64,000 nt of DNA from an uncultured Acidobacteriota bacterium (GCA_963829355.1 CAWHHZ010000008.1:97075-161074); one strand, 5' to 3'. Positions 29,779 through 57,592 are shown, counted from the stretch's first letter. The notes: generated by a model from the letters alone, not told the origin. Translations and numbers: made by a program.

Positions 29779-29911
29779 GTCATCCTGAGCCGCCGGATCC
29801 CGCGAAGCGGGAGGAGGACGGTCGAAGGATCTCGTGGAGCCTACCGGCCCGAAGTTCGGCTCCAGTCAGGACGTACCCGATCCTTCCCCCGCGGAGCGGG
29901 GTCAGGATGAC
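29779..29911. repeat. nested inverted-repeat intergenic element, type A (GTCATCCTGAGC...CAGGATGAC)
   Basis: Terminal inverted repeats plus the internal 'CCCGCGAAGCGGGAGGAGG' motif shared with the copy at 42441. Confidence 0.7.
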
Positions 29912-30061
29912 AGTCCCTCTTGTTTCCAGTCATTTACGAAGAGGTTCATTAGAAGCGGCGTCATTCCCTCGTTCAAAATGACAGCCTGCTGACCCGGGTC
30001 ACGGTCAATCGGCGGGACGCCGACTGACATCGGGCGGGGACGCCCGACCCACACAGAGGCA

Positions 30062-30097
30062 CAAAAAAGGCCCCGGCGACTTCTCGTCGCCGGGGCC
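30062..30097 (-). terminator. rho-independent terminator of the TonB-dependent receptor gene
   Basis: GGCCCCGGCGAC-TTCT-CGTCGCCGGGGCC hairpin followed by T6 on the minus strand, about 30 nt past the stop at 30128. Confidence 0.7.
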
Positions 30098-30127
30098 GGT
30101 GTGGCTTACATCAGACTACTGGTCGAA

Positions 30128-33085
30128 TCAGAACCGCAGGCCGGCGGAGAACTGATACGTCCGCGGCTGCTGGTAGGAAAGCGAACTGGTGGCTTCACCG
30201 AAGCTCGCCCTCTTCTCCCAGTTGACGCCTTCAACTGGCGTCTCGGTGTAGGGGTTGAAGTCTTCGAGAACGCGGACACTCGTGCTTCCGGCGATCTGCG
30301 CCGACTCGTCGAACACGTTGATCACTTCACCCTGGATGAACAGGTCGAACTGACTGATGTTGAACACCCAGTTGAGGGCCAGGTCAGTCGCGCTCAGGTC
30401 ATCCCAGCGGTACTCGCCACGATCGCTGAAGAAGTAGGTCAGCGTGGACGGGCTCTGCTGGTACCCAGGGTTGTCGATGTAAGAACCGACATCGACGTTG
30501 GCGGACGCAGAGTACGGCGAGCCTGACTCGAAGCGCTCCATCACAGTGATGTTGAGGCTGCCGAGTGCGCCCAGCGGCTGGTCGTACGAAGCCCAGAGAC
30601 GGGCCTTGTGCGTCTGGTCCGTGAGGAGCAGACCGACCGGGTTGTGCTGCGCGAAGTTGCGGTACTCGACATACGTGTTCGTGTTGTCGGGACCCGGGCC
30701 GCTTCCACGTGTTTCACCTTCGGTATTTCCCTTGGTCTCGGACCAGGTGTAGTTGCCACCGAGGTTGAACTGCGGCATGACGCGATACATCGCCTGAAGC
30801 TGGACTGCCTGATACGTACGCGTCAGGTCGTTGGTGTTGCCGTATGTGACGATATCGAGGTCTCCGATGACCGGATCGCTGATGGAGTCACCAGGAGTCG
30901 TGTAGGTGGAGTAGAAGTCCGACCAGTCACGATCGATGAAATCGGCGCGGAAGAAGCCCTTCGTACCGATCTGCGTTCCGAAGCCGACAGTGAACTCGTC
31001 GGTGCTGGGCGAGAGGAGCTCACCGGTGAAACGCTGGTTGACTCCCGGGACGCCGGCAAAGAAGAGATGGCTGAGATTCTCGTAGCCGCAGTTGCCTGCA
31101 CCGTCACAGTCGTTGAGGAACCATGTGTAGACCTGCTCGAGAACATCGAACGGTCCAAGACCGCTGTTCTCTCCACCGACTTCAGGTCCTGCATACTCGA
31201 ACAGGAAGTAGGCCGGGTTTCCACCACCACCAGCGCCACCGACGGTCTCCTGAATGCGGGAGACGTACTTGCTGTAGCTGGCGTTGACGCGATAGCGACC
31301 GTCGCCGCCGATGTCGTAGATCAGTCCGAGACGCGGACTGACGTTCGAGTCCTTCGAGATCTGGTTTCCAGCGCTGTCGACACCGTCGTTCTTGTCATAG
31401 CGAAGGCCGAGGTTGAAGCTCCACTGGTTGCTGAGGTCCCACTTGTCGTTGATGAACAGTGAATCCGTTACGAAGTCAGATCCCTCGGAGAGCGTGAGGA
31501 TCGGGCTCCAGAAGATCGTGTCGCCAGGCGCCACCACCGGACGAAGCTCGCCGTTGGCGGTTCTGGTCGGTTCAATACCGCTGTAGGTGTAGACCTGGAT
31601 GTTCGCTCCCGACTGATAGTTGTTCGAGAGACGCGACTCGGCGAAGTTCTCGTAGCCGGCCACGATGTTGTGCGAGCCGAGGCCCGACGTTGCCAGGTAG
31701 TACGTACCCTTGAGGTTGTAGTACTCGTTTTCGCGAGACTCGTCATCACAGACGCCGCAGAAAATCGGCGCGCCCCAGGCTCCACCATAGGTGTAATCGT
31801 AGGCCCAGCTTCCGAGGGCGAGATCATGCGGATCGTTGAGATCCTGCGTGACGTAGTCGCCGCCGCTGCCGGAGAACACGAGGTCACGAGTGGAGTAACC
31901 GGCCTCGACGAGGAAGTTGCTCGAGAGAACACCGCTGTAGTTCGCGGTGATCATCTCGCGCGGGAGCTGACGGCCGTTGAGATCCATCGTCTCGAGGTTC
32001 CAGCAGCCGAACGCGCAATGAGGAGTCTGATCGACCGTGTAGTCGAGATACGATCCGACGAGGCTGTGGTTCTGGGTGAGCTGCCCCGTCAACTTGATCT
32101 CGTAACGCTCGTCAGTTTCGACGGTCGTCGGACGAGGAATCGTGGAGTTCGTGAAGAAGCCGGTGATGTCCTGCTCGAAGTAACGGCCTGCGGTGAAGAA
32201 CCACAGACGATCACGGACGACGTAACCACCGAGGGTGGCTTCGTAGACCTCGTTGAGGGAGCTGTCCTGCTGCGGCTCTCCAAACGGGGTCGTTTCGTCC
32301 CAAGAAGGGTCGGTGAAACTGTCGCGGAAGCTTCCCGAGAACTCGTTTCCACCCGACTTGGTGATCGCCGAGACGACGCCACCCGTGAAGCGGCCGAACT
32401 CTGCCGAGATCGCTCCACTCATGACCGAGGTCTCTTCGATCGCGTCCTCGATGAACAGGTTGTCGGTCTGCCCACGAACGTTCTCGTTGGTCACGGCACC
32501 GTTGACGAGGAACAGAGAGTCGAACGACATCGCACCGGAGATCGTGATGTTACCGCCCGGTCCGGTGGTCGTGACGCCAGGGGCCATGTTGGTGATGGCC
32601 TGAACGGTACGACCGATCGGAAGCTCTTCGACGATCTGTTCGGTGTAGTTGGACTGGATCTCGGTGGTCTCGATCACTGCCGGCGCTGCTGCAGTGACCG
32701 TGATGGACGAGGTCACCGCGGTGAGCTGCATATCCGCGTTGACGCGCTCCGACGCATTGAGTGCGACACGAGTCGTCCTGACTACCGGGGCCATTCCTTC
32801 CATCTCGAAGGTGACGGTGTAATTTCCAGGCGGAATCGACGGGAAGATGTAACTACCGTTGACGTCCGTGGACGTTACTCGTACACCCTGAAGACTGGGT
32901 GAGCTGATCGTGACCGTCACGCCCGGCAGATTCTCTCCGCCGTGCTCGACGCGTCCGCCCAGCGAGCTTGTGGTTCCCTGCGCGAACACCGTACCGGTGA
33001 CGAGCAGAAGCGCCACAATCACTACTGAAAAACGCTTCAAACTACTCATTAAAACCTCCTGTGAACGTTTAAAATCATCAGACAC
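30128..33085 (-). CDS. TonB-dependent receptor-like outer-membrane protein with N-terminal carboxypeptidase-regulatory-like domain
   Basis: 985 aa. The probable start is Met13 (33048), preceded by AGGAGG. Signal peptide, 'CarbopepD_reg'-like 'GGRVEHGGENLPGVTVTISSP...TDVNGSYIFPSIPPGNYTVTF', a long beta-barrel region and a C-terminal '...AGLRF'. Confidence 0.7.
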   Translation of the reverse strand: MSDDFKRSQEVLMSSLKRFSVVIVALLLVTGTVFAQGTTSSLGGRVEHGGENLPGVTVTISSPSLQGVRVTSTDVNGSYIFPSIPPGNYTVTFEMEGMAPVVRTTRVALNASERVNADMQLTAVTSSITVTAAAPAVIETTEIQSNYTEQIVEELPIGRTVQAITNMAPGVTTTGPGGNITISGAMSFDSLFLVNGAVTNENVRGQTDNLFIEDAIEETSVMSGAISAEFGRFTGGVVSAITKSGGNEFSGSFRDSFTDPSWDETTPFGEPQQDSSLNEVYEATLGGYVVRDRLWFFTAGRYFEQDITGFFTNSTIPRPTTVETDERYEIKLTGQLTQNHSLVGSYLDYTVDQTPHCAFGCWNLETMDLNGRQLPREMITANYSGVLSSNFLVEAGYSTRDLVFSGSGGDYVTQDLNDPHDLALGSWAYDYTYGGAWGAPIFCGVCDDESRENEYYNLKGTYYLATSGLGSHNIVAGYENFAESRLSNNYQSGANIQVYTYSGIEPTRTANGELRPVVAPGDTIFWSPILTLSEGSDFVTDSLFINDKWDLSNQWSFNLGLRYDKNDGVDSAGNQISKDSNVSPRLGLIYDIGGDGRYRVNASYSKYVSRIQETVGGAGGGGNPAYFLFEYAGPEVGGENSGLGPFDVLEQVYTWFLNDCDGAGNCGYENLSHLFFAGVPGVNQRFTGELLSPSTDEFTVGFGTQIGTKGFFRADFIDRDWSDFYSTYTTPGDSISDPVIGDLDIVTYGNTNDLTRTYQAVQLQAMYRVMPQFNLGGNYTWSETKGNTEGETRGSGPGPDNTNTYVEYRNFAQHNPVGLLLTDQTHKARLWASYDQPLGALGSLNITVMERFESGSPYSASANVDVGSYIDNPGYQQSPSTLTYFFSDRGEYRWDDLSATDLALNWVFNISQFDLFIQGEVINVFDESAQIAGSTSVRVLEDFNPYTETPVEGVNWEKRASFGEATSSLSYQQPRTYQFSAGLRF

Positions 33086-33202
33086 TGTTCTGCAACACCG
33101 CTATGCACATCAGCACGCATCCTGCCGGAGTGCCAGCAGCGCACAACTCTTTGTACTGCTTACGTTTAGACCGTTTTGTTACCGTTATTGGACCAGTCGC
33201 CG

Positions 33203-33218
33203 ATTCAAGATCTTGAAT
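33203..33218. promoter_or_regulatory. perfect 16-bp palindrome ATTCAAGATCTTGAAT in the long leader upstream of the TonB-dependent receptor gene
   Basis: Read directly. It lies in a roughly 600-bp comparatively AT-rich non-coding region (33090-33660). Confidence 0.4.
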
Positions 33219-33664
33219 GTGACACCGGAATCGGCACGGGAAAAACCCCGGATCGGGTCGAGGAACGGAATCTCGCGGCCTGTCTCAACCCGATTATGTC
33301 ACAGAATCGTGAACGGAAAACAAGGGCATCGATCAGACGGCGTCGAAATTCGGGGAGTTGTCCGGAAGTCAAGGGCGCGAGAAAGGCTAAGCAGCGCAAT
33401 CGTGTTACGGAACGGTAAACGCTCTCCTCCTTACCGGTTTTCGGAAGGGAAATTCAAACTGCCGAATTCGGGACCGCGAAATCGAGCAGAAAACGAGCCT
33501 CTGGTGACACTTCCGTCAAAGAGCTTCTACAAACAAAGGTCCATGGTGCGCGCGCGGCAGTCCGTGTGGACACCATCCTGCCGACTCCATCGGTTCGAAC
33601 GCCGCCAACAACAGGACCAGCCGAAGCTCGCCGTACAAGGAACAGGGCGCGCCGTCCGTCAATC

Positions 33665-33964: not shown

Positions 33965-34259
33965 TCGCTGCCTCCTGCGGCTGGGAGTGCAAGCTCCACG
34001 CAAGGGCTGGTTCTCTTGATGCGGAGGAACACGGGGTCGCGTCGCAAATCACCCGACCGGCTCCTCTCTTCCACGGAAACAGAGACGGCCTTCGCGGCGC
34101 GGTCGCCACATTGCGGATCTGCGGCGTGGCAGCTGCCGATGCTGCCTCGACATGAGTTCGAAGAAACTGTCATTCCGAAGGAGCAGCTTCATCGCGACTG
34201 AGGAATCTGGCGGGGGGCCAGCCGCTTCCCCCGGAGGCCCGCTGCTCTGCCCCGGTGCA

Positions 34260-34358
34260 GTCATCCTGAGCGCCAGCGAAGGATCGCGTACGGCTGACTC
34301 TACGGAAAGTACGTGGCAGTCGGGACGCACCCGATCCTTCACAGCCTCTCAGGATGAC
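34260..34358. repeat. nested inverted-repeat element, type A (short version)
   Basis: GTCATCCTGAGCGCC ... CTCAGGATGAC with the internal CGAAGGATCGCGTACG core. Confidence 0.7.
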
Positions 34359-34703
34359 TGCACTTTCGTGGTCGCTGTCGAGGAACCCACTCCCTCCATT
34401 ACACTTCACCCGTGAGCTCTCGTGTGGAAGTGGCTGCCCGTCTGATCTGCGCTGCCCGGCGTCTGGTGGTCGTGACCGGTGCGGAGATCAGCGTCGCGAG
34501 TGGACTGCCGATGTTCGTCGGGACGTCGTATTCGGTCGGGATCACAGCCCTGGCGCTCGACGCTGCCCGAATGCTCTCGATTCCCGTCACTTCAATCGAT
34601 CCCGCGGGCAACGCGCCACCCGGGGCGATCAGCATCGAGCTGAACGCCGAGGACGCACTACCGCGAATCGTCCAAGAATGTCATTGAACCGAAAGCGGTT
34701 CAG

Positions 34704-35291: not shown

Positions 35292-35296
35292 AGCGG

Positions 35297-35333
35297 GGTT
35301 CAGAGGTTCAGGGTTCAGGGGTTCAGGGGTTCA
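35297..35333. repeat. (GGTTCAG)x5 heptamer array
   Basis: Direct reading, immediately after the stop codon at 35291. Confidence 0.85.
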
Positions 35334-35343
35334 ACTGAAAACG

Positions 35344-35485
35344 GTGGACGGGGAGGACGGGCGTGGACCCGGGTGGACGGAGTGGACAGAGACGTGGACG
35401 AAAGACTGGAAATGTCGCAGTGCCCATGGTCCACGTTTTTGTCCACGTCTCTGTCCACCCACGTCCACGCGTCCACGCCAGTCCA
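35344..35485. repeat. inverted arrays of GTGGAC (left) and GTCCAC (right) hexamer repeats, forming a roughly 55-bp imperfect long hairpin between convergent genes
   Basis: For example, GTGGACAGAGACGTGGACG (left) is the exact reverse complement of CGTCCACGTCTCTGTCCAC (right). Likely a bidirectional terminator built from repeats. Confidence 0.75.
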
Positions 35486-35506: not shown

Positions 35507-36682
35507 TCAGCGTGCGTCGTACTCGAGTGCGAGGAGCGCGAGATCGTCCTCGAGCTCGAGCGTTCCACGGTGGGCGTCGAGAGCGTCAACGACGCTGGGA
35601 CACGCGAGATCAAACTTTTCTTCTCGGGTCGACTCTGCCGCCTTGACGAGCCCCTCGATGCCGAACGGCTCTCCCGAGGAGTCAGCCTGCTCGATCAGAC
35701 CATCGGTGTAGAGGAAGAGGCGGTCGCCGCGGTCGAGGGTGATCCTCATCTCCTCGCTCTCCGGGCGTCTTCCGACCCCGACCGGCGGCCCTCCAGCCTC
35801 GAGCAGCTCGAACGTATCCTTCCGCAACAACACGGGAGGTGGGTGTCCGGCGTTCGCGTACACCACCTCACCACTCGCCGGATCGATCATCAGGAGCACG
35901 ATCGTGAAATACCTGTTGAACCGGCTCATCGGAAACTGGTCTTCGAGAGAACGAACGACCGCCTCGGGGGACGGCGCGTGAGAGCGGTCCAGAATGAATG
36001 CCGAGTGGAGCTCCTGAAGGATCGCCTGCGCGACTGAGATGGTCACGAGCGCGGGAGGGACTCCGTGACCTGCGACGTCGACCAGATACATCGCCCACCA
36101 CCCGTTCCCGACCGGGGCAACATTGAAGATGTCGCCCCCTATGTGCGTCGAGGGCGTGAACTCCCATCTGATCGCGAAACCCGGGATCGACAGCCCTGGC
36201 TGAGGAAGAAACGTCTGCTGCACCATGCCCGCGGAGCGCAGATCCTCTTCGAGCATCTCCTGCTTTTCGGTCAGATCCCGGTTCGCATCGGTGAGCGACT
36301 GTGTCAGTTGCCGGATACGAAGCTGCGTCTTCACCCGCGCGAGCACTTCCTCGCGTTTGAACGGCTTCGTGACGTAGTCGGCAGCTCCGAGATCGAGGCC
36401 GCGTACCTTCGACGGAGTGTCGTCGAGTGCCGTGATGAAGATGACCGGCAGGTCCTCGTAGTCATCCTGCGCCTTGATCCAGCGACAAAGACCGAAACCG
36501 TCGAGCGCCCCCGGGAGCATCACGTCGAGCAGCACCAGATCCACTTTCGTTGATCGAATCCACTTGAGCGCCTCGGAGGCGTCTGCGGCCTCGACGATCG
36601 AATAGCCCGCCGCGGTCACAATCTCGACGAGCGCCTTCCGATTTGCGGCAACATCCTCGACGATCAGGATCTGCTGACTCAT
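35507..36682 (-). CDS. response-regulator receiver fused to PP2C/SpoIIE-type serine phosphatase (RsbU-like)
   Basis: Receiver 'ILIVEDVAANRKALVEIV...VDLVLLDVMLPG', then a PP2C core 'GGDIFNV...YLVDVAGHG...LFLYTDGLIE'. Confidence 0.8.
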   Translation of the reverse strand: MSQQILIVEDVAANRKALVEIVTAAGYSIVEAADASEALKWIRSTKVDLVLLDVMLPGALDGFGLCRWIKAQDDYEDLPVIFITALDDTPSKVRGLDLGAADYVTKPFKREEVLARVKTQLRIRQLTQSLTDANRDLTEKQEMLEEDLRSAGMVQQTFLPQPGLSIPGFAIRWEFTPSTHIGGDIFNVAPVGNGWWAMYLVDVAGHGVPPALVTISVAQAILQELHSAFILDRSHAPSPEAVVRSLEDQFPMSRFNRYFTIVLLMIDPASGEVVYANAGHPPPVLLRKDTFELLEAGGPPVGVGRRPESEEMRITLDRGDRLFLYTDGLIEQADSSGEPFGIEGLVKAAESTREEKFDLACPSVVDALDAHRGTLELEDDLALLALEYDAR

Positions 36683-38196
36683 CCGCGCGAGTCCTCCGCG
36701 AGATGTGCGTCGCGAAGAAGATCGAACACCGTCTTGACGGGAGCAAACGTGAAGGCGGGCAGCTCGACAAAAATCGAGTTCCAGCCTGCCATCGCACCGT
36801 TCCAGAGTCCCGGATGCTCGAGGGCACGCAGCTCTCTGCCCTCGTGCGTCTTCTGCGCGACGAAGGCGGCATCATGATCGACGAACTTCGCCAGATCGTA
36901 CGGCTCCCCCTTCGGGTCCCGCACTGCACATGCGATGGCGACCGGATTGAAGTGGGTGGATGAGCCGAAGATCTTCCTCTGCTTCGAATCATCCATGTCG
37001 ATCTGCGACGACTCGACGATCTGGAGCGATTCCGATCCATCACGACCACGTACCCAGAACGGAGCCCCGCCCGGCTCTCCTTCGTTTCTCACGACGGCGC
37101 AAACACGCAGCGGATGCTGGAGAGCGTCACGGACGTGTCGTTTCATTGCTTCGACGTCATCGCGATCCCCTCGCCACGGGCGCCCGAATGTCTCGCTCAC
37201 AAACGCCAGTGCGCGCGTCACCGCCGTATCGCCATCCTCGTCGATCGAGCGGAGCGCATTGCGAACGCGATCCTCGACACGACCCAGGTAGCCGATCAGT
37301 ACCTGATACCAGCGAGCGACGGCTTCATGAGCGTGCTGCGGTCTCACGTTATCGATGTTCTTGATGAAGACGACATCGCCGTCGAGGCGACTGAGATTTC
37401 GCAACAGAGCGCCGTGCCCTCCCGGACGGAACAGAAGCCGCCTCTCATCAGTGCGAAACGGGTCCCCGGCCGGCGTGATGGCGAGAGTATCGGTGGAAGG
37501 ATGCTGAACGGAGAAGGAGACGCGCGGTGTCAGACCGCTCTCCTGCTCCACTTCGACCGCGACACGCTTTTCCTCGATCGAAAAGCGACCGAGATCACTC
37601 TGCGGAACGGTGAAATGGAGAGACATTTCACGGCCGTCTCCGAGAAACGTGACCCCTTCGCGAATCTGTTCTTCAAACGCGGTTCGCGCCTCGTCGCCGT
37701 ACCGGTGAAAGAGAATCAGCCCCTTCGCGAGGTCCGCATATCCGAGACCATCAGAAGTGAGGAGAAGCCGGATGATCGTCCGCTTCTCCTCATCGGAAAG
37801 GCCGGATTCGAAGGAGATGCCCTCCTGTAGCGTCCGCTCCTCGAGGTACCCAGCGAATGGAAACTCATCCAGATTGTCGATGAAGCGCTGCGGCGCGCCT
37901 GCGAGTGATTGGGATGGCTCGAGCGCCGGCATCAGCTCCGAGAACATTCTCGTTGCGGCTCCGGAAGCGGGAACGAACTTCTGCAACCGGCCTTTCCTGG
38001 CCATTTCCCCGGCTTTCTCGACGAGACTGTCCATCTCGGACTCCTCGATGATGACGATGCCGTCTCCCGCCGTCGCCGGACGGACGAGCTCCACACTGCT
38101 CGACGGTCGCCGCAGAAGATCGAGCTGACGTTCTGCTTCCTCCACCGTGATCTCCCGTCGTTCGAGCTCTTCCCTGTCGTGTTCGTTCCAGTCCAT
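36679..38196 (-). CDS. DUF4301-like protein with UDPGP-type nucleotidyltransferase motifs
   Basis: 505 aa. 'FVPASGAATRMF' (cf. LNGGLGTxMG), 'PGGHGALL' (cf. PxGHGD) and 'KNIDNV'. ATGA overlap with the RR-PP2C gene. Confidence 0.4.
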   Translation of the reverse strand: MDWNEHDREELERREITVEEAERQLDLLRRPSSSVELVRPATAGDGIVIIEESEMDSLVEKAGEMARKGRLQKFVPASGAATRMFSELMPALEPSQSLAGAPQRFIDNLDEFPFAGYLEERTLQEGISFESGLSDEEKRTIIRLLLTSDGLGYADLAKGLILFHRYGDEARTAFEEQIREGVTFLGDGREMSLHFTVPQSDLGRFSIEEKRVAVEVEQESGLTPRVSFSVQHPSTDTLAITPAGDPFRTDERRLLFRPGGHGALLRNLSRLDGDVVFIKNIDNVRPQHAHEAVARWYQVLIGYLGRVEDRVRNALRSIDEDGDTAVTRALAFVSETFGRPWRGDRDDVEAMKRHVRDALQHPLRVCAVVRNEGEPGGAPFWVRGRDGSESLQIVESSQIDMDDSKQRKIFGSSTHFNPVAIACAVRDPKGEPYDLAKFVDHDAAFVAQKTHEGRELRALEHPGLWNGAMAGWNSIFVELPAFTFAPVKTVFDLLRDAHLAEDSRG

Positions 38197-38336: not shown

Positions 38337-38450
38337 GTCATCCTGAGCCGCCGGAGCGCAGCGGAGGACGGTCGAAGGATCGCGTACGGCCCGACTCTCA
38401 GCCCGGAAAGTACGCGACAGTCAGGCCTTACGCGATTCGCTCAGGATGAC
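38337..38450. repeat. nested inverted-repeat element, type A
   Basis: GTCATCCTGAGCCGCC ... GCTCAGGATGAC. The inner perfect inverted repeat is CGAAGGATCGCGTACG / CGTAAGGCCTGACTG-like. Confidence 0.7.
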
Positions 38451-38516: not shown

Positions 38517-41500
38517 GTGCACTCTCATGACCGAGACTCTGACACTTGCGGAATTGAGGAATCGTGCTGCCGCTTCCGGAGAGATGAGATGAGGCAAATG
38601 GAGAGAATCATGTGCGTCCTTCCGGCCGTCCTTCTATGGGCGGTCTCGCTGCCGGCTCAGGAGCAACCCTCCTTCCGCGACAGTGTCGAGGTGCGCGTGA
38701 TCAATCTCGACGTCGTCGTGGAGGACGCGGCCGGGAAACCCGTCACGGGACTCTCCCCCTCCGATTTCGAGATCCTCGAGAACGGAAAGGTCCAGCCGAT
38801 CACGAATTTCGCGGAGTATCAATCGGGCACGTTCGTCGAGCCTCCCGAGGATGCTCCGGCAGCAACGCAGTACGTTCGTCCGGCGGAAACGCGCCAGCCG
38901 CGAACCATCGTGTTTCTGATCGATGCATTCAATCAGACGCCCAACGTGCGGGAGGAGCTGTTCACCCGCATCCGTGAGTTCACGCGTGACGGGCTGGAGC
39001 CGGGAGACCGGGCCGCCCTCTTCAATTGGCGCAAAAGCATCATGACCGTGGTGCCTCTCACTACCGATCTTCGTCTGATCGACCGGGCTCTATCTCAGAT
39101 GGGGGGGATGCAGCTCCCTGCCGAGGATCAGGCGATGGACGGAATCGTTCAGTTTCTCGAGGAGGCTGACGCGTTCGAGCAAGGGTTGGGCGACGCGGGA
39201 GCCTCATCTCTCGCGGCCCAGATGGAAACGACGATCCGCCATTGCGCCGAGGAGTACCTCTCGGAGATGGAAGGCAAGAGTATCGCCCTGCGCAGCATGA
39301 TTGATTCGCTGGCGGGAATCGAGGGCCGGAAAATACTCGTCTACGTCGCCGGACGCTTCCCCGCCGACACCGCCACGTACTGCCAGTCGATCCTCCGGAC
39401 CCCGGCGCTGGGTCCGGCGAACTTCACATTCCGTGCGGGGACTTTCAGCACCGATCGCCTCGTGGACAAAGTGACGGACGCCGCGAATGCTGCCGGCGTC
39501 ACGTTCTACCCCATCCGGCCGAGAACGAGTGCGCGCCGCACGACAGCGGTCGAGTACACGACCGAGTCGAGCACCGGAGCCAGCGAAGAGCTGGGCGACA
39601 CGCTCGTGATGATGAACGATGCCGACGCGCTCGCCACACTCGCCGAGAAAACCGGAGGCCGTCTCGCGGTGGGAGATCACCTCATCGACGAGCTCCTCCC
39701 TTCCATCCTCTCCGATCTCGACAATTACTATTCACTCGGCTATCGCGCGACCTCGGATGGAGGTGATCGGCAGCGAGACCTCACCGTCCGGATGAAGAAC
39801 CGTTCTCTCCGGGCCAGGGCCCGCGACGCCTTCGTCGAAAAGTCGCGACTCTCAGAAATCAAAGACCAGTTGATCGCCAATCTGTTCGGGGAGCCCCGAA
39901 AGGGTGACATCGAGCTCGATGTCATCGTCGGAGAGCCGGTCCCAGGCCGTCGTGGCCGCTCGACGCTTCCGGTGGAAGTGCGCATTCCGCTCGACCAGCT
40001 CATCTACGAGGGGCAGACTCCCGTCAGTGAGGTCCGCCTCCTCTCCGCCGCCGGAACGACTCCGGGATCCACGACCGAGATCTCCGAGACCGTGAAGCGC
40101 ATCGAGAAACCACCGGCCGACCTGGACGCTCCTTTCATTACCTGGAAAGTCGACCTCGTGCTGCCGGAGGGAGGAACGAAGGTCGCGTTCGGCGTCCTCG
40201 ACGAGGTCTCCGGCCTTGTTGGATTCGTGACAGTCGATCGGACGACCGAATCGATCGAGCGCGCTGAGGCCGCGGCCCTGGCAGGTCTGAGCGAGTGGGA
40301 ACGGGTCCTCGAAAAAGGCCACCGCAAGGGTAAGCCGCTCCTCGTCTACTTCCGGCCGGAGCCATGCTATCGCCGTGAAGGGTTCAACAAGATTCCGATC
40401 TGTGACCAGTTCGAGAGTGACGTTCTCAGCCATCCGGAAATTGCGCAGCGTCTCCAGAGCTTCGAGCTCATTCGCTGGACACCGGGGGTGGGACTCGCCG
40501 ACTGGCCGAAAGACCGGGCCGGTCTCGCCTTGATGAGAATCGACGGACAGCCGATCGTGCAGTGGACTGATCTTCTCGACGGCGCCAATCTCGCGAGGGT
40601 TCTCGACACGCTGATCCCGCACGCGCGGGAGTTCGTACGCATCAACGAACTGACCCGGCTGCACCGGATCGATGAGGCCGATCTGGCCACGGCGATGCTC
40701 AAGATCAGGTTCGGACTGCGGCGTGAAGCAATCGAGACACTCGAACGTCTGAAGAGAGAGAATCCGGAATTTCGCGAGATCTCGTCAGTGCGGCTCGCGT
40801 ATCTGGATGCCGCCGAAAACAGAGGCCGCGGCCTTCGGGAGCTTCACACCTTGATCCCGAAGCTTTCGGATCCTACTGCAGTCGGTGAAGGGTGGCTTGC
40901 GGTCGCTGCGCTCACCTCAGGGGAGGAGAAGCTTCAGGCTCTGCGCTCGGCTCTGGAAATCTCGCCTGACGGCAGCTCGCAGAAGATCATCGCGCAGAGC
41001 GAGCTCGATGCGCTGGTTGCTCCTGAGCCAGACCAGTCCGTCATTCAGGTCGCACCGGTACCGATCGCATCGGGTCGCACCGAGATCCGCACCGTCGTGC
41101 GATCGTCGAAGGTCGACTCGGTCGAGTTCGTACTCGACGGCCGCTCCATCGCGAAAGATGAAGCCGCTCCGTTTCGCGCGAGCGTCGATCTCGAGCGTCT
41201 GCCGGCGAGGCATGATCTGAAGGTCATCGCTCGGGACCCCCGCGGTTCCGTGATCGGAGAAGACGTCCTCGTGCTCAATGGCAACAGCGACTCGCTCTGG
41301 GTGAGATTCATCGCGCCCGAGCTCGATCAGGCCTCAGGCGAAACGCCGGTGGAGCTCGTGCTGCAGGTTCCGCAGAACCAGATGCTCAGATCGGTGAAAA
41401 TTGATCACGACGGCGATGTCATCGCGCTCGAGGGACCGCCCTACCGCACGAACGTCACGATTGACCCCGCTGCGGGAATCTCCGTGCTTCAGGCGACGGT

Positions 41501-42410
41501 CACACTGGAAAATGGTGAGACCGCGGGAGACACGAAGATTCTCAACGGCGCCGGGCTTGCCGAGACGACCGGTGTCCATCTGGTCGAGATTCCTCTCGTG
41601 CCAATGGGAAACCAGACCCCGAGGCTCGATCAGATCCGTCTGTTCGAGTCGGGCCAGGCGCGCGAGATCGAGGCTCTGATTGGTTCCGACGAGGCTCCGC
41701 TCACGCTCGGGCTCGTCATCGACACCTCCACCAGCATGAACGACCGTATCCTGGACGTGCAGTCGGCCGCCGTTACCTTCGTCGAACAGGTGCTCCGTCC
41801 CCAGGACCGCGGCTTCCTCATCTCCTTCGATTCCGAGCCTCATCTCGACGTGCAGCCGACCGCGGATCAGCCGCGCCTCGTCCGGGGGATCCGTGCGCTC
41901 TCCCCGGGCGGCAAGACGGCTCTGTTCGACGCAATGATGCTCGGCCTTCTGCAGTACGAGACTCTCGGCGGGCGCCGCGCGATGGTCGTGTTCAGCGATG
42001 GCGAGGACAGCATCAGCCGGTACAAACTCGAGGATATCTCCGAGGTTGCCAGAAGGACAGGAATCCCGATCTATCTGGTGCGTGCATGGTCCGAAGAGGA
42101 GCGGGAGCGTCTCGCACCGCAGAACGTTCCGACGTTTCGGAGCTCGTCGACCAACACGGTCCTGCAGCGGCAACAGCAACAGCGCCTGGAGCATCTGTCG
42201 CGTGAGACCGGCGGAACGTTTTTCGACCTGAGCTCGCTCTCGGCGATCGATGAAGTGTTCGCCGAGATCGGCCGCCTCGTCCGCCGCCAGGTGCTCCTGA
42301 CTTACCTCACCGAGACCAGCCCGAACCAGGAGTGGCGCCCGATCGAAGTGAGAGTCGAAGGTCGCGCCGAAGTCAAAGCACCTCAGGGCTACTACGCGAG
42401 ACCGAACTAG
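38517..42410 (+). CDS. giant secreted acidobacterial-type VWA protein (multiple domains); probable start at Met25 (38589)
   Basis: 1297 aa. Signal peptide 'MCVLPAVLLWAVSLPAQEQ'. TIGR03436-like N-terminus 'VRVINLDVVVEDAAGKPVTGLSPSDFEILENG'. The C-terminal VWA domain has a complete MIDAS motif ('LVIDTSTSM...GGKTALFDA...VFSDGED'). Confidence 0.65.
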   Translation: MHSHDRDSDTCGIEESCCRFRRDEMRQMERIMCVLPAVLLWAVSLPAQEQPSFRDSVEVRVINLDVVVEDAAGKPVTGLSPSDFEILENGKVQPITNFAEYQSGTFVEPPEDAPAATQYVRPAETRQPRTIVFLIDAFNQTPNVREELFTRIREFTRDGLEPGDRAALFNWRKSIMTVVPLTTDLRLIDRALSQMGGMQLPAEDQAMDGIVQFLEEADAFEQGLGDAGASSLAAQMETTIRHCAEEYLSEMEGKSIALRSMIDSLAGIEGRKILVYVAGRFPADTATYCQSILRTPALGPANFTFRAGTFSTDRLVDKVTDAANAAGVTFYPIRPRTSARRTTAVEYTTESSTGASEELGDTLVMMNDADALATLAEKTGGRLAVGDHLIDELLPSILSDLDNYYSLGYRATSDGGDRQRDLTVRMKNRSLRARARDAFVEKSRLSEIKDQLIANLFGEPRKGDIELDVIVGEPVPGRRGRSTLPVEVRIPLDQLIYEGQTPVSEVRLLSAAGTTPGSTTEISETVKRIEKPPADLDAPFITWKVDLVLPEGGTKVAFGVLDEVSGLVGFVTVDRTTESIERAEAAALAGLSEWERVLEKGHRKGKPLLVYFRPEPCYRREGFNKIPICDQFESDVLSHPEIAQRLQSFELIRWTPGVGLADWPKDRAGLALMRIDGQPIVQWTDLLDGANLARVLDTLIPHAREFVRINELTRLHRIDEADLATAMLKIRFGLRREAIETLERLKRENPEFREISSVRLAYLDAAENRGRGLRELHTLIPKLSDPTAVGEGWLAVAALTSGEEKLQALRSALEISPDGSSQKIIAQSELDALVAPEPDQSVIQVAPVPIASGRTEIRTVVRSSKVDSVEFVLDGRSIAKDEAAPFRASVDLERLPARHDLKVIARDPRGSVIGEDVLVLNGNSDSLWVRFIAPELDQASGETPVELVLQVPQNQMLRSVKIDHDGDVIALEGPPYRTNVTIDPAAGISVLQATVTLENGETAGDTKILNGAGLAETTGVHLVEIPLVPMGNQTPRLDQIRLFESGQAREIEALIGSDEAPLTLGLVIDTSTSMNDRILDVQSAAVTFVEQVLRPQDRGFLISFDSEPHLDVQPTADQPRLVRGIRALSPGGKTALFDAMMLGLLQYETLGGRRAMVVFSDGEDSISRYKLEDISEVARRTGIPIYLVRAWSEEERERLAPQNVPTFRSSSTNTVLQRQQQQRLEHLSRETGGTFFDLSSLSAIDEVFAEIGRLVRRQVLLTYLTETSPNQEWRPIEVRVEGRAEVKAPQGYYARPN

Positions 42411-42440: not shown

Positions 42441-42594
42441 GTCATCCTGAGCCGCCGGATCCCGCGAAGCGGGAGGAGGCCTGCCCTGAGCGAAGCCGAA
42501 GGGACGGTCGAAGGATCGCGTACGATCCGACTGTCAGCACGGAAAGAACGCGACAGTCAGGACGTACGCGATCCTTCGCTTCGCTCAGGATGAC
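42441..42594. repeat. nested inverted-repeat element, type A (longest copy)
   Basis: GTCATCCTGAGCCGCCGGATCCCGCGAAGCGGGAGGAGG ... CGAAGGATCGCGTACG ... CGTACGCGATCCTTCG ... GCTCAGGATGAC. Confidence 0.75.
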
Positions 42595-50506: not shown

Positions 50507-50510
50507 ATCT

Positions 50511-50580
50511 GAACGATGAACGATGAACGATGAACGATGAACGATGAACGATGAACGATGAACGATGAACGATGAACGAT
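50511..50580. repeat. (GAACGAT)x10 perfect heptamer array abutting the rluA-family start codon
   Basis: Begins 5 nt upstream of the ATG at 50504-50506 (minus strand). It occupies the position where an RBS or promoter would be. Confidence 0.9.
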
Positions 50581-50661
50581 GAAACCGAACGCTTAATGGT
50601 GAGCTACGTTAGCCTATGAATCACCATCAGGCAAAGCAGCTCCAGACGCCGTTTTTCCTCT

Positions 50662-50691
50662 CATCGTTCAGCGTTCAGCGTTCATCGTTCC
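50662..50691. repeat. (CGTTCAG/CGTTCAT) heptamer array just 3' of the NamZ-like gene stop
   Basis: catcgttcagcgttcagcgttcatcgttcc. Confidence 0.8.
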
Positions 50692-52369: not shown

Positions 52370-52445
52370 GCCTTCCGAATCCTGAATGCTGAAAGAAAGG
52401 CAACGAGCATTCAACATTCAACGTCCCAGCCCCCCTTCTCCAAAC

Positions 52446-52510
52446 CGACAACCGACAACCGCCAGAACTGCCGAGAACTGAGAACCGAGAACTGAGAATT
52501 GAGAACCGAC
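52446..52510. repeat. heptamer arrays (CCGACAA)x2 and (GAGAACT-like)x5 in the divergent mogA/queA intergenic region
   Basis: Direct reading. Confidence 0.8.
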
Positions 52511-52593
52511 TCTTCAGTATGACCCCTCAGCATTCCCCGTTCCACATCTCCGGCATATTCTTTCGGTTCTCTGCATTCAAGACACGCGTTCGC

Positions 52594-53652
52594 ATGAAAA
52601 AGAGTGACTTCAATTACGAGCTCCCCCAGGAGCGGATCGCGCAGGAACCACGCCAGCGCGGGAAATCGAGGATGATGCTGGTCGATTCCGGAGACGGCTC
52701 GATCGCGCACCAGCACATCGCAGATCTCCCCCGCCATCTCGTCCCGGGCGACGTTCTCGTTCTCAACGATACGCGGGTCATCCCCGCACGACTCTTCGCC
52801 GCTCCCAGGCCGGGAATGACCCGGCCGATCGAGATTCTGCTCGCGAAGCGTCTCGCGCCCCACCGATGGGAATGTCTTGCAAAACCGGCGAAGAGACTGC
52901 GTCCGGGCGACCATCTCCAGATATCTGAGCAATTGCAGGCCACGATTATCGAGAAGAGCGAGGGAGGAATCGTCGTCGTCGCGTTCAGTACGGAGAGCGC
53001 GAGTGAAGACGCCTTCTGGCAGGCACTCGAGGCCGCCGGACGAATGCCCCTCCCTCCCTACATTCACCGTCAGTCCGCATCGGATGCGATCGAAGACCGG
53101 GTCGCGTATCAGACCGTGTATGCCGACCGGCCCGGTGCGGTCGCGGCACCGACGGCAGGACTCCACTTCACCAGGGAAATCCTCGACGAGATCGAACAAC
53201 GCGGTGTCGAGATCGTGCGCGTCACCCTGCACGTCGGAATCGGCACCTTTCGCCCCGTGCAGGTCGACGATGTCAGAGATCACGTGATGGACGAAGAGTG
53301 GTACGAGGTCTCTCCCCCTGCTGCCGGGACGATCAACCGTGCCCTCGACGACAACCGTCGAGTCGTCGCGGTGGGAACGACCGCGGTGCGGACTCTCGAG
53401 AGCGCCACCGGCCACGATGGACGGCTTCAGCCCGGGGAAGGACGGACTCGGCTTTTCATCACGCCCGGCTACCGGTTCAGGGCTGTCGGCGCTCTGCTGA
53501 CGAACTTTCATCTCCCGGAGAGCACGCTTCTGATGCTCGTCTCGGCATTCGCCGGCCGCGATCTGGTGTTGCGCGCGTACGCCGAAGCGATCGCTGAGTC
53601 GTACGCGTTCTACAGCTACGGCGACTGCATGTTCCTGCCACGAAGAGCGTGA
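52594..53652 (+). CDS. queA: S-adenosylmethionine:tRNA ribosyltransferase-isomerase
   Basis: 'MKKSDFNYELPQERIAQEP...RMMLVD...VLVLNDTRVIPARL...LPPYIHR', full-length QueA. Confidence 0.9.
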   Translation: MKKSDFNYELPQERIAQEPRQRGKSRMMLVDSGDGSIAHQHIADLPRHLVPGDVLVLNDTRVIPARLFAAPRPGMTRPIEILLAKRLAPHRWECLAKPAKRLRPGDHLQISEQLQATIIEKSEGGIVVVAFSTESASEDAFWQALEAAGRMPLPPYIHRQSASDAIEDRVAYQTVYADRPGAVAAPTAGLHFTREILDEIEQRGVEIVRVTLHVGIGTFRPVQVDDVRDHVMDEEWYEVSPPAAGTINRALDDNRRVVAVGTTAVRTLESATGHDGRLQPGEGRTRLFITPGYRFRAVGALLTNFHLPESTLLMLVSAFAGRDLVLRAYAEAIAESYAFYSYGDCMFLPRRA

Positions 53653-53799
53653 CCCGCCCCCTGGGCCCGCGCAGGCGGGCCGTGACAAACGGAGCGCTGT
53701 GTCGCCCGCCTGCGCCTCGCTCCAGGCAGCGCTGCGCCACTGTCATCCTGAGCGATGGGACATCGCGTGACGACGCGCCTGAGAGACAGAAACAGGTCT

Positions 53800-53907
53800 G
53801 TCATTCCGAACGATCCCGCAAAGCGGGAGAGGAGGAATCTGGGGTGCAATGCAGGTCTGCCGCCCAGATTCCTCAGTCGCGATGAGGCCGCTCCTTCGGA
53901 ATGACAG
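53800..53907. repeat. nested inverted-repeat element, type B (GTCATTCCGAA...TTCGGAATGACAG); preceded by a type-A terminal fragment at 53742-53754
   Basis: Shares 'GAGGAGGAATCTG...AGATTCCTCAGTCGCGATGA..CCGCTCCTTCGGAATGACAG' with the copy at 57469. Confidence 0.7.
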
Positions 53908-54020
53908 GGAACGCCGAACCCGCATAGTTGCAGTACGCCATCCTTCGCTGACTCTCAGGACGACAAATTTTCGAACGGCTCCGGTTCAACCCGTGTTAGA
54001 ACCTTCCGAGGACTGACCGC

Positions 54021-54986
54021 TTGAATCGAAACCCCTTCTCCTGGATCGCCTTCGGACTGGTGTGCTTCGTATGGGGCACGACCTATCTCGCCATTGCCGT
54101 GGCGATCCGCACGCTGCCGGACTTCCTGTTCCCTGCGCTCCGATTCATTCTCGGGGGGTTCATTCTTCTCGCAATCTGTATCGCTGCCGGGCAGAAGCTG
54201 CCGCGGAGACCAAAGGACTGGCTCAATCTGACGATCATCGGCTTTCTCATGGTCGTCGTAGGAAACGTCGCCGTGGTGTTCGCCGAGCGCGATGTGCCCA
54301 GCGGTATCGCAGCGCTCATGGTTGCCACGGCCCCGTTCTGGATGGCCCTTCTCGAATCGTTCCGGAAGAACGGCGAAAGAATGAATCCGAGGAAGATCGC
54401 CGGCATGCTCGTCGGGTTCGGAGGCGTGGCGATTCTCGTGGCCCCCGCCTTCCGAGGGATCCTGTCGGCCGGATTTCTGGTCGGCGCCTTCGTCATTCAG
54501 ATCGGCAACTTCTCCTGGAACCTCGGAGCCTTCCGTTCAAAATACGCGATCCCGCGGGACATCCCTCCACTGGTCGCCGCGTCGATCCAGATGATCGCGG
54601 GCGGCATGATCGCCGGAGTCATCGGACTCGGACTCGGCGAGTGGCGCCAGTTTTCTTTTACGACGGATACATTTCTGGCGTTTCTCTACCTGGTCATCTT
54701 CGGCTCAGTCGTCGCGTACGGCGCCTACGTCTATGCACTCGCCCATCTTCCGACCTCGGTCGTGGCAACGCACACCTACATCAACCCCGTGATCGCGGTG
54801 ATCGCCGGCCGCGTTCTGCTCGACGAGCCACTCGGCTGGCGCGCCGTGCTCTCGATGGCGGTCATCTTTGCCGGCGTCGCGATCGTGAAAACCGATCGTT
54901 CCCATGTCCCGCAGACTTCCACCGGCATTCTCCCGCCGGTCGAACCGGCCGCTGATTCGCAGCGAGGAATGAAAATCAGGGACTGA
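54021..54986 (+). CDS. EamA/DMT-superfamily transporter
   Basis: 10-TM pattern with duplicated EamA halves ('WGTTYLAIAVAI', 'LAFLYLVIFGSVVAYGAYVYAL'). Confidence 0.8.
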   Translation: MNRNPFSWIAFGLVCFVWGTTYLAIAVAIRTLPDFLFPALRFILGGFILLAICIAAGQKLPRRPKDWLNLTIIGFLMVVVGNVAVVFAERDVPSGIAALMVATAPFWMALLESFRKNGERMNPRKIAGMLVGFGGVAILVAPAFRGILSAGFLVGAFVIQIGNFSWNLGAFRSKYAIPRDIPPLVAASIQMIAGGMIAGVIGLGLGEWRQFSFTTDTFLAFLYLVIFGSVVAYGAYVYALAHLPTSVVATHTYINPVIAVIAGRVLLDEPLGWRAVLSMAVIFAGVAIVKTDRSHVPQTSTGILPPVEPAADSQRGMKIRD

Positions 54987-55056
54987 CGAGGTCGCTGTTT
55001 CCGGCTAGGCATGCCTTCTGCTTTATTTCAAATAACATCAACAGAAAGGACATGTC

Positions 55057-56040: not shown

Positions 56041-56061
56041 CGCGGCGGCAATCGAACGACA

Positions 56062-56090
56062 GGGCGGCTCTCCGGAGCCGCCCTTTTTTT
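56062..56090 (+). terminator. rho-independent terminator
   Basis: GGGCGGCTC-TCCG-GAGCCGCCC followed by T7. Confidence 0.75.
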
Positions 56091-56132
56091 GCCAGAACCA
56101 TGCATCGCCGCGGCGCCTGGCAAAAACCAGGT

Positions 56133-56244
56133 GTCATCCTGAGCCGCCGCAGGACGGCCGAAGGATCGCGTTCGGCCCGACTCTCAGGACGGAAAGTACG
56201 CGACAGTCAGGACGCACCCGATCCTTCGCTGCGCTCAGGATGAC
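56133..56244. repeat. nested inverted-repeat element, type A
   Basis: GTCATCCTGAGCCGCC...GGACGGCCGAAGGATCGCG...GCTCAGGATGAC. Confidence 0.75.
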
Positions 56245-56322
56245 ATATTCGTATTGACAAATCTGATCTGTGGCCTTATCTTCTATACATATTCGCTTGA
56301 ACGAATTCTCAAGAGGAGTCAG

Positions 56323-56799
56323 ATGAGTCAGACGGAAACCGCAGTAACCTTTCTCAAGCCCCACATCTCGATCAACGTCCGTAACCTGGAGGCGAGCCTC
56401 GATTTCTATCGACGCATGCTCGGTCTCGAGCCAGCAAAAGTGAGGACCGGGTACGCGAAGTTCGATGTCCAGAATCCACCACTGAACCTCGCCCTCAACG
56501 AGGTCCCTTCGCTCGAGGGGCCGGGAGCGCTCTCTCATCTCGGCTTCCAGGTCTCCACCACCGAAGACGTGCTCGCGATGCGTGCGCGCTGGTCGGAGGC
56601 GGGCCTGATTTCGCGGGACGAGATGCAGACGGACTGCTGCTATGCCACCCAGGACAAGACGTGGGTGAAGGACCCGGACGGAAACGAGTGGGAGGCGTTC
56701 GTGGTTCTCCAGGACAATCTTCCGGAGAACCAGGAGTATGCCGGGAGCTGCTGCTCCACCGTCACCAGCACATGCAGCACCACGGGAGGTGCGGCGTGA
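56323..56799 (+). CDS. ArsI/CadI-family VOC (glyoxalase-fold) metalloenzyme with vicinal Cys pair
   Basis: Collinear with Bacillus ArsI: 'HISINVRNLEASLDFYRRMLG...AKFDVQNPPLNLALNE...HLGFQVSTTEDV...TDCCYATQDKTWVKDPDGNEWEAF', including the As(III)-binding 'CC'. Cys-rich C-terminal tail. Confidence 0.65.
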   Translation: MSQTETAVTFLKPHISINVRNLEASLDFYRRMLGLEPAKVRTGYAKFDVQNPPLNLALNEVPSLEGPGALSHLGFQVSTTEDVLAMRARWSEAGLISRDEMQTDCCYATQDKTWVKDPDGNEWEAFVVLQDNLPENQEYAGSCCSTVTSTCSTTGGAA

Positions 56800-56810
56800 T
56801 CGAGATGTTC

Positions 56811-57416
56811 CTCAGCGGGATGATCGCCGGATACGGAATCGCGATACCGGTCGGCGCCATCGCGGTACTGATCATCGACACGAGCATGCGTCACGGTTTC
56901 CGCCACGGCTTTGCAGCCGGGGCGGGAGCCGCCAGCGCCGATCTGCTCTATGCTTCCCTGGCGGCGGGAGCAGGCGGCCTGCTCGCGCCGCTCATCGCGC
57001 CCGCAGCGTCGGTCATCGGCACGGTAAGCGGTCTCGTCCTCTTCCTCATGGCTCTGTCCGGGCTCCGCGCGCTCAGACGGGACGCTGCAAGCTCGGGAAC
57101 GCCCTCCGCGTCGGGGCGCTCGAGCCGATCGACCTTTCTCCGGTTCACTGCCCTGACGATCGTCAATCCCCTCACCGTCGTCTACTTCTCCGCGCTCCTG
57201 CTCGGAACGGGAGTCGGCCAGCTGACGACGCGCTCCCTGCTGGTGTTCATCGCCGGGGCATTCATCGCATCTCTGTCGTGGCAGACGATGCTCGCCGCGC
57301 TGGGAGCATGGGCTCACGTGGCAGCGGGAACCTCCTTCAGGCGTGTGAGTGGGCTTGTCGGCAATCTCGTCATCCTCGGCTTTGCCGTGACGACGCTGTT
57401 TCGCGCATGGGCGTGA
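56811..57416 (+). CDS. LysE/RhtB-family amino-acid exporter
   Basis: 'MFLSGMIAGYGIAIPVGAIAVLIIDTSMRHG' N-terminal LysE pattern, about 6 TM. Confidence 0.65.
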   Translation, partial: LSGMIAGYGIAIPVGAIAVLIIDTSMRHGFRHGFAAGAGAASADLLYASLAAGAGGLLAPLIAPAASVIGTVSGLVLFLMALSGLRALRRDAASSGTPSASGRSSRSTFLRFTALTIVNPLTVVYFSALLLGTGVGQLTTRSLLVFIAGAFIASLSWQTMLAALGAWAHVAAGTSFRRVSGLVGNLVILGFAVTTLFRAWA

Positions 57417-57468
57417 GCAATGGACATCTGAGCGCATTGAGAGCCTGGCCCTGGCCTGGCAGATTGCT

Positions 57469-57592
57469 GTCATTCCGCCTGCCCTGAGGAGCGAAGCGAC
57501 GTAGGGAACGAGCGAAGCGAGGAGGAATCTGTTGGGTGGACTCCACGCCGAGATTCCTCAGTCGCGATGAAACCGCTCCTTCGGAATGACAG
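57469..57592. repeat. nested inverted-repeat element, type B
   Basis: See the copy at 53800. Confidence 0.7.

Follow-up and report, generated by a model that had tools for sequence, protein, structure and literature searches.

Inverted-repeat elements in the window

We analyzed a 64-kb stretch of the genome of an uncultured Acidobacteriota bacterium (GCA_963829355.1, CAWHHZ010000008.1:97075–161074; hereafter the window), to which all within-genome evidence reported here is confined. The window carries a family of short inverted-repeat elements of two types, A and B, comprising 14 recognizable units, one degenerate arm, and a nested remnant, all within 29.7–57.6 kb (Table 1). These are arranged as seven head-to-head dimers and one solo unit, and the dispersed dimers are 99–154 bp in size. 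As an earlier note on this DNA had claimed, all copies are intergenic, being located between long open reading frames (ORFs). The neighboring genes are ordinary chromosomal ones (sulfatase-TPR, TonB-dependent receptor, DUF4301, VWA protein, RibD_C, histidine kinase, NamZ, QueA, EamA, and LysE).

The earlier note had described seven elements, and all seven are present (A1–A5, B1, and B2 in Table 1). Their shared termini exceed chance: allowing at most one mismatch, GTCATCCTGAGC matches the window 13 times versus 0.8 expected, and none of 100 shuffles reached 13. The ends common to the elements are TGTCATCCTGAGC, which read TGTCAT...ATGACA, that is, TG...CA. Type A copies are 71–92% identical over the full element, spacer included, and the left ends of A1 and A4 are identical over 40 nt. 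The type B copies B1 and B2 have a 47-nt right half in common (94% identity). The type B 11-mer GTCATTCCGAA is by itself at chance level (4 matches versus 1.7 expected), and we accepted type B on its full-length structure and the 94% identical right halves, not on this 11-mer. Whole dimers, including the spacer, are the entity that is copied within the genome.

The inner palindrome CGAAGGATCGCGTACG/CGTACGCGATCCTTCG, previously described as perfect in type A, is perfect in A4 only; the other copies have one or two mismatches or a deletion in one arm. The motif GGGAGGAGG, which had been thought common to both types, occurs exactly in only two type A copies, at chance level; type B has GAGGAGGAAT instead, whose GGAAT supplies the 3′ half of the stem in the unit described below. 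The sequence at 53742 had been taken for a type A end fragment. It is indeed a type A end, the left one of a degenerate dimer of that type (53742–53962) within which B1 is nested. This outer dimer was recognized by alignment to the five type A copies once 53798–53909 had been removed, and a match from the inner-palindrome scan (53932–53947) falls inside its right part. The solo unit, which matches the right arms of B1 and B2 in unit type, had been omitted from the earlier list.

Table 1. Elements of the family in the window (positions counted from its first nucleotide; strands in brackets).
Element	Description	Position	Left unit	Right unit	Features
A1	type A head-to-head dimer	29779–29911	29779–29831 (+)	29879–29911 (−)	left unit has a 32-nt insert with hairpin CCCGCGAAGCGGG, placed between GAGC and CGAAGGATC
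Solo	single unit, type B stem	34169–34207 (+)			cTGTC-ATTCC-GAAGGAGCAGCTTCATCGCGACTGA-GGAAT-C
A2	type A dimer	34260–34358	34260–34285 (+)	34333–34358 (−)	shortest (99 nt); tag AGTC instead of TGTC
A3	type A dimer	38337–38450	38337–38381 (+)	38425–38450	right arm degenerate, second box deleted
A4	type A dimer	42441–42594	42441–42517	42570–42594 (−)	best preserved (154 nt); left unit has two additional hairpin modules; right unit canonical, GTCATCCTGAGCGAAGCGAAGGATC
Outer dimer	degenerate type A dimer around B1	53742–53962			left end CTGTCATCCTGAGC; right arm AGTACGCCATCCTTCGCTGACTCTCAGGACGAC
B1	type B head-to-head dimer	53800–53907	53800–53839 (+)	53867–53905 (−)	stems ATTCC/GGAAT
A5	type A dimer	56133–56244	56133–56167 (+)	56220–56244 (−)	
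B2	type B dimer	57469–57592	57469–57529 (+)	57552–57590 (−)	long insert in left unit

Anatomy and folding of the unit

Each arm is itself a small palindrome, and the element therefore consists of two inverted units whose tags face outward, with a spacer between them that has complementary ends. The type A unit, ~25 nt in length, reads (C)TGTC-ATCCT-GA-GC-GNA-GC-GA-AGGAT-C. A (C)TGTC tag at the 5′ side leads into a 5-bp stem, ATCCT/AGGAT, inside which are two conserved G/A–A/G positions and a GC/GC mini-stem; the loop is GNA, and a C follows on the 3′ side. The type B unit is the same except for its stem, ATTCC/GGAAT. Five Watson–Crick pairs, G/A, A/G, and two G-C pairs thus make up nine stacked positions, two of them noncanonical, and the canonical loop is GNA (3 nt), or CGNAG with the last pair open. 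The stem begins with A-T/T-A in all window units; the tag is TGTC in 12 of the 14 units and AGTC in the other two. Following the stem is a C, then mainly T or G, with no CCA tail present.

The canonical short unit is found in the right arms of A4 and A5. Four type A left arms and all type B arms have 14–57 nt in place of the short GNAG segment, such that the stretch from GAGC to CGA ranges from 4–5 nt up to 57 nt among window units. These long inserts often contain a hairpin, CCCGC-GAA/AAA-GCGGG. The idea that they are always self-folding apical hairpins proved only partly true (median z −0.74; 35% with z < −1.5), and many pair with the opposite arm rather than folding on themselves. In the asymmetric type A dimers (A1, A3, A4, and A5), the long-insert arm is always on the left on the plus strand (4 of 4 copies), whichever way the flanking genes point. 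A replication-strand bias may be the reason, but four copies are too few for a test.

The earlier claim that the copies can fold into stem-loops was borne out, with RNA folding of each element yielding z-scores of −4.2 to −9.3 relative to shuffles (A4, −94.5 kcal/mol, z −9.3; A2, z −6.8). DNA folding of two copies yielded z-scores of −5.1 and −6.7. The structure is symmetric on both strands, and the conserved bases are base-paired.

Covariation within the unit

A metagenome scan was carried out with the pattern GTCAT-NNN-GAGCGNAGCGA-NNN-ATC, in which the stem triplets are free and one unit is sufficient for a match; at least 148 units were found. Among the matches listed, the triplets are complementary in 141 of 148 units (95%, with 8 distinct pair sets), as compared with 1.6% by chance. 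A formal count over the 141 distinct units among these matches found 99.2% of cells paired. Two-sided changes occur at all three free pairs, in 138 cells versus 39.6 ± 14.8 in shuffles (0 of 500), and controls with slid partners reached at most 56% pairing. There are no G-U pairs in the 423 variable cells of the same 141 units. The genome loci described below (at least 120) have the same pattern of stem covariation as the metagenome units.

Covariation between the halves of a single arm indicates that the unit folds on itself, as pairing of one arm with the other would not demand it. The listed metagenome matches comprise 61 single units, 29 head-to-head pairs, 14 head-to-tail tandems, and three or four tail-to-tail pairs; the base preceding GTC is T in 87% and C in 10% of the 148 listed units. 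The ~25-nt unit, not the end of a long palindrome, is the conserved entity.

Distribution across phyla

The family had been thought specific to this lineage, which it is not. We searched 185,579 representative genomes for the pair of 12-nt ends with 71–131 nt between them, for which we estimate a chance expectation of ~0.1 matches, and found 95–155-nt elements with the same ends at no fewer than 120 loci in at least 13 phyla. By record title, the matches listed belong to Acidobacteriota, Verrucomicrobiota, Chloroflexota, Bacteroidota, Planctomycetota, Gemmatimonadota, Armatimonadota, Patescibacteria, Actinomycetota, Bacillota, Pseudomonadota, Spirochaetota, and Bdellovibrionota. Cultured carriers include Hymenobacter spp., Granulicella rosea, Bifidobacterium pluvialisilvae, Flavobacterium soyae, Sphingobacterium humi, and Taibaiella chishuiensis.

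Among the 131 listed elements, 106 have a second box (CGAAGGAYC/GRTCCTTCG) that the search pattern did not require. In about half of the arms, 3–5 nt separate this box from the first; in the others, the distance is 8–52 nt. T precedes the tag's GTC (position −1) in 78% of the same 131 elements, and their interiors are unrelated between phyla. The 11-nt core GAGCGNAGCGA and GTCAT are near-invariant across phyla.

The A4 element had no match in plasmids by blastn. The 31-nt canonical unit had short matches in plasmids of Hymenobacter, Granulicella, cyanobacteria, and Phocaeicola, none of them annotated. At a Taibaiella chishuiensis locus (L118, 2750–4090), five nearly identical 133-nt dimers occur in tandem with a period of 230–381 bp; the neighbors of this array are FabH and a response-regulator gene, with no transposase.

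Genomic context and turnover

The window elements were proposed to lie mostly at the 3′ ends of genes, and this holds in part. Two are between convergent genes, three between co-directional genes, one (A3) between divergent genes, and one is in an unclear context. A1 precedes the start of the sulfatase-TPR gene (27614–29701, −) by 78 bp and lies beyond the terminator (30069–30097) of the TonB-receptor gene. A3 lies between the divergent genes for DUF4301 (36679–38196, −) and the VWA protein (38517–42410, +), and A4 between the convergent stops of the VWA protein (42410) and RibD_C (42657). B1 is between QueA (52519–53652, +) and EamA (54021–54986, +). A5 is flanked by the intrinsic terminator of the upstream gene (56061–56084) and a promoter-like site at 56254, and B2 begins 53 nt past the LysE stop (57416), with the convergent gene having its own terminator (57675–57700). 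At A1 and A5, a canonical intrinsic terminator separates the upstream gene from the element. A terminator scan of the window found no T-run terminator matching any whole element and no element followed by a T-run; a single match falls within an element, on a weak stem of five pairs at the left edge of A5.

The elements among the listed genome matches are also intergenic, with 16 of 131 inside long open frames versus 95 of 131 random positions. These 16 are in stop-free frames of at least 250 codons (L014, L019, L044, L050, L113, and 11 further loci); some could be in-frame intragenic insertions like the Rickettsia palindromic elements (RPEs), or the frames could be spurious GC-rich ones.

QueA of the window is 72% identical to the protein of the nearest relative and ~60% identical to those of named Thermoanaerobaculia metagenome-assembled genomes, indicating that the source is an acidobacterium without close sequenced relatives. 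The relative with 72% QueA identity (L121) is syntenic with the window. Its QueA–EamA spacer is empty (128 bp, versus 369 bp in the window), as is the site 3′ of LysE that B2 occupies in the window. Conversely, the 3′ region of a CAP gene has a tandem cluster of ATTCC-type dimers in L121 and none in the window. The site after the DUF5666-like gene (A5) is filled in both but with different variants, each adjoining the conserved sequence ACATATTCGTATTGACAAAT. The insertion points are not definable to the base by comparison with L121, as the spacers are too diverged, except for the common right flank at A5. These differences in occupancy, along with the nesting of B1 in a type A dimer, show that related genomes have gained and lost sites.

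Relationship to known repeat families

Di Nocera, De Gregorio, and Rocco (2013; BMC Genomics 14:522, PMC3733652) divide repetitive extragenic palindromes (REPs) into GTAG-tagged and CGTC-tagged superfamilies. The CGTC superfamily is described there as four families (CGTC-1 to -4) in five phyla. Its repeats have an unpaired 5′ tag, CGTC, which is TGTC in many repeats and has CCTC as an allowed variant; stems of 8–9 bp, with A-T and T-A as first pairs; loops of 4–5 nt; and a CCA tail. Head-to-head dimers with the tags outside predominate, with spacers of 20–100 bp that have complementary ends or small stem-loops. The repeats are intergenic, chiefly between co-directional or convergent genes, and have no dedicated transposase. 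Neisseria dRS3 and Rickettsia RPE-4/RPE-6 are placed in CGTC-1 and CGTC-4, and Novosphingobium aromaticivorans is named for CGTC-2 (PMC3733652).

The window elements resemble this superfamily in the fit of the tag, AT-starting stems, head-to-head dimers, spacers with complementary ends, intergenic position (chiefly with co-directional or convergent neighbors), and lack of a flanking transposase. They differ in that the tag is mostly TGTC, and Acidobacteriota along with most of the other phyla found here are outside the five reported for it. We confirmed a CGTC-type unit from alphaproteobacteria in plasmids of Methylosinus, Methylocystis, and N. aromaticivorans; the Methylosinus and Novosphingobium units have a CCAG tail. 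In N. aromaticivorans pNL2, a head-to-head dimer (CGTC-ATTGC-GAGCGTCGCGA-AGCAAT-CCAG) is located downstream of a dioxygenase gene, and its skeleton, GTCAT-NNN-GAG...CGA-NNN-ATC, is that of the window family. The designation of the elements as REP-type in the earlier note was apt, in that inverted pairs of a short tagged hairpin unit fit the published CGTC/TGTC class. We file the window family in the CGTC/TGTC-tagged superfamily, without assigning it to a particular one of the four families.

The closest functional analogue, by comparison of organization, is the GTAG-tagged system of REPINs and REP-associated tyrosine transposases (RAYTs) of Pseudomonas and Enterobacteria. As in REPINs, an inverted doublet folds with its spacer into a single long hairpin, the doublet is copied in its entirety (at 71–92% identity here), intergenic populations occur within one genome, and a conserved 5′ tetranucleotide is joined to an imperfect hairpin. 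Unlike in REPIN–RAYT systems, the tag is TGTC/CGTC with no GT[AG]G, and no cognate RAYT was found in the window and 121 loci. RAYT–REP pairs co-evolve and are lineage-specific, whereas the core of the unit studied here is nearly identical across phyla.

Neisseria dRS3/NIME arrays and Rickettsia RPE-4/RPE-6 are similar in unit shape (GTC-ATTCC...GGAAT-C) and in forming clusters and dimers; the peptides VIPAKAGI and IPAFAGMT would back-translate to GTCATTCCCGCGAAGGCGGGAATC. Unlike the window units, dRS3 and RPE units have fully Watson–Crick stems of 8–9 bp and other loops, and RPEs frequently sit within genes, in frame, a position not seen in the window, where every copy is intergenic. Class 3 Y1-transposase REP-like repeats occur in Solibacter, Planctomycetes, and Legionella (Quentin et al. 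2018). They too are high-copy hairpins in Acidobacteria, and their foot, CnGA(G) with CCGC, recalls CTGAGCCGCC of the long left arms of type A. Their consensus, CCGAGCCGCGACCGTAAGGGAGCGG, belongs to a different unit, with one partial match in the window (GCCGCGACCGT at 13429, outside the elements), and we judged the kinship of CTGAGCCGCC with these repeats to be superficial. Integron attC sites are also inverted cores around a variable center (57–141 bp), recognized as folded single-stranded DNA. Their cores (RYYYAAC/GTTRRRY) differ from those here, and they come with a cassette array and an adjoining integrase, nothing of which is found here. A search of the full-text literature with the end sequences returned unrelated primers only, and a 2025 survey of REPs does not describe the window family.

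Other repeats and features of the window

A minimal hairpin, GTCATTccctcgttcaaAATGACAG (29960–29984), has the tag and ends of the family without its core. It sits between A1 and one copy (30003–30038) of a second short repeat family, consisting of hairpins of the CGGCGGGACGCCG type; this copy is ~90 bp from A1 and 81% identical to the other, at 11264–11299. The CGGCGGGACGCCG-type repeat may be another REP type. Tandem heptamer arrays occur as inverted pairs between genes, for example, (TGAACGA)10.6 followed by (TCGTTCA)n, at 27440–27470, 27551–27622, 35295–35333, 50510–50583, 50661–50690, and 52473–52506. Orthologous spacers in L121 have arrays of other heptamers (7724–8112 and 9778–10001; GTGATGA/CACTTTT and TGAATGC/ATTCAGC), meaning that position is conserved and sequence is not. 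A long hairpin at 35359–35479, upstream of a response-regulator/SpoIIE gene, has GTGGAC(N) repeats in one arm and GTCCAC(N) in the other and attracts spurious Rfam matches to microRNA precursors. A match to group II intron domains V–VI (24313–24391, −; Rfam RF00029, 58.2 bits, E 7.5e-9) implies such an intron in the window, which also has a 100-nt direct repeat (4558–4657 and 5149–5248) with 86% identity and copies 591 bp apart.

Interpretation of the elements

We consider it probable (about 0.7) that the elements are head-to-head dimers, tags outward, of a REP-type unit belonging to the CGTC/TGTC-tagged superfamily. Like REPINs, the dimers would spread as non-autonomous elements via a single-stranded DNA hairpin intermediate. 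E. coli TnpAREP requires a bulge or imperfect hairpin and a 5′ motif, in single-stranded DNA (PMC8266576). By analogy, a trans-acting enzyme would recognize the unit in its folded single-stranded form; the tag and the conserved GA/GA-GNA core would be the sequence determinants, and the stem a determinant of shape. The lack of G-U pairs and the strand symmetry make DNA a better fit than RNA. Once inserted, a copy would be mostly neutral; if transcribed, it could form a 3′ stem-loop affecting read-through or mRNA decay. Transcribed copies may still work as such stem-loops in the way shown for E. coli REP325, although this cannot be what the family generally does here.

Several observations weigh against this interpretation. 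With respect to the superfamily as described, the window unit has no CCA tail (C is followed by T or G), its stem has two conserved non-Watson–Crick positions (GA/GA) along with a GNA loop, and many units have inserts of 14–57 nt where loops of 4–5 nt are described. The isolated canonical unit hairpin is not especially stable in nearest-neighbor DNA folding (−3.8 kcal/mol, z −0.8); such folding does not single it out, and the case for the unit hairpin rests on covariation. No RAYT or TIRYT homologue was detected by tblastn in the window and 121 loci with eight query sequences (the E. coli RAYT and seven RAYT/TIRYT sequences from the supplement of Di Nocera et al.). All-versus-all clustering of the 3354 ORFs of 120 loci revealed no recurrent neighbor, there being no family in more than five loci. 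Acidobacteria do have a conserved Y1 transposase family, which in three genomes is flanked by another palindrome, GGGTGCCCCACATCTCGC...GAGATGTGGG. Turnover was seen only at ~72% protein identity, with no insertion or excision at base resolution, and the evidence from the source genome comes from a single 64-kb window.

The palindrome GGGTGCCCCACATCTCGC(N)GAGATGTGGG is the Y1 genes' own REP-like family, copies of which accompany acidobacterial and verrucomicrobial Y1 genes (L242, 1740–1995; L245, 1949–1969 and 2512–2620). It does not occur in the window, which has only two lone half-site matches (22514 and 56360). The Y1 transposase genes are not bracketed by TGTC units; the A. capsulatum gene has one CGTC-type unit ~320 bp downstream. 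An ORF beside the elements in Hymenobacter and Faecousia loci was considered as a partner and is RsmG/GidB, a coincidence.

Across Proteobacteria, Acidobacteriota, Bacteroidota, Chloroflexota, and Bacillota, the tag and the 11-nt core hardly change, and the stem covaries freely. This suggests, tentatively and against the odds, that the TGTC/CGTC unit is an “orphan” REP system, served by a very widespread enzyme instead of by lineage-specific RAYTs. Such an enzyme would be either a transposase or nuclease of a new kind that acts on single-stranded DNA or a host factor for replication or repair that is itself conserved.

The earlier note had also raised two other identities for the elements. A classical miniature inverted-repeat transposable element (MITE), derived by deletion from a DDE-type insertion sequence and having TG...CA ends to which a transposase binds that a full-length copy provides in trans, would agree with the TGTCAT...ATGACA termini and with several dispersed intergenic copies of 99–154 bp. 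We regard it as very unlikely: no consistent flanking direct repeat attributable to target-site duplication was found in 134 elements at four boundary offsets, and the “terminal repeat” is a self-complementary unit that covaries inside one arm and is also found singly and in tandem. Known MITE families do not resemble a set of elements that have the same ends in at least 13 phyla but unrelated interiors, no transposase gene recurs near the copies, and no parent insertion sequence with the same ends was seen in the window or loci. The other identity, a structured RNA, would be a cis-acting 3′ untranslated region stabilizer, terminator, or attenuator that is selected for its fold and has spread only secondarily. 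The very stable predicted RNA folds and the copies close behind stop codons (A4 between convergent genes and B2 past LysE) are consistent with such an RNA, as is the finding that E. coli REPs are context-dependent terminators and stabilizers (bioRxiv 10.64898/2026.03.23.713779). It is nonetheless improbable, if less so than a MITE. The elements have no Rfam match at the gathering threshold and only spurious matches to microRNA precursors at the E-value threshold. Conserved bases are paired symmetrically on both strands, and none of the variable pairs is G-U. No T-run follows the hairpins, A1 and A5 lie beyond a terminator and A3 between divergent starts, and occupancy varies between syntenic relatives.

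The units might instead be double-stranded DNA sites for dimeric binding by a host protein, such as a nucleoid-associated protein, gyrase, or a recombinase for which they are a target, as is the case for Neisseria dRS3, a known integration target for phage. A near-invariant 11-nt core with GTCAT across phyla would be expected of such sites. On the other hand, covarying stems together with a conserved loop favor a folded single strand over a duplex site, relatives differ in the number and positions of their copies, and we know of no candidate binding protein. That dRS3 is assigned to the same superfamily (PMC3733652) speaks in favor of this explanation, which we nevertheless hold to be as remote as the MITE.

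Implications

The REP class itself is known, and what is new is the family in Acidobacteriota, along with base-pair-level covariation evidence for the 25-nt unit as a conserved entity. Relative to the five phyla reported by Di Nocera et al., the range of the CGTC/TGTC class is extended to Acidobacteriota (Thermoanaerobaculia-like) and about eight further phyla. In metagenomes from soil and gut, such repeats give rise to spurious ORFs and break assemblies, and a clear definition of the unit therefore helps annotation. What remains of interest is that an orphan REP unit should be so invariant from phylum to phylum, which sharpens the question of what mobilizes a REP class that, with no RAYT, keeps one core across phyla.

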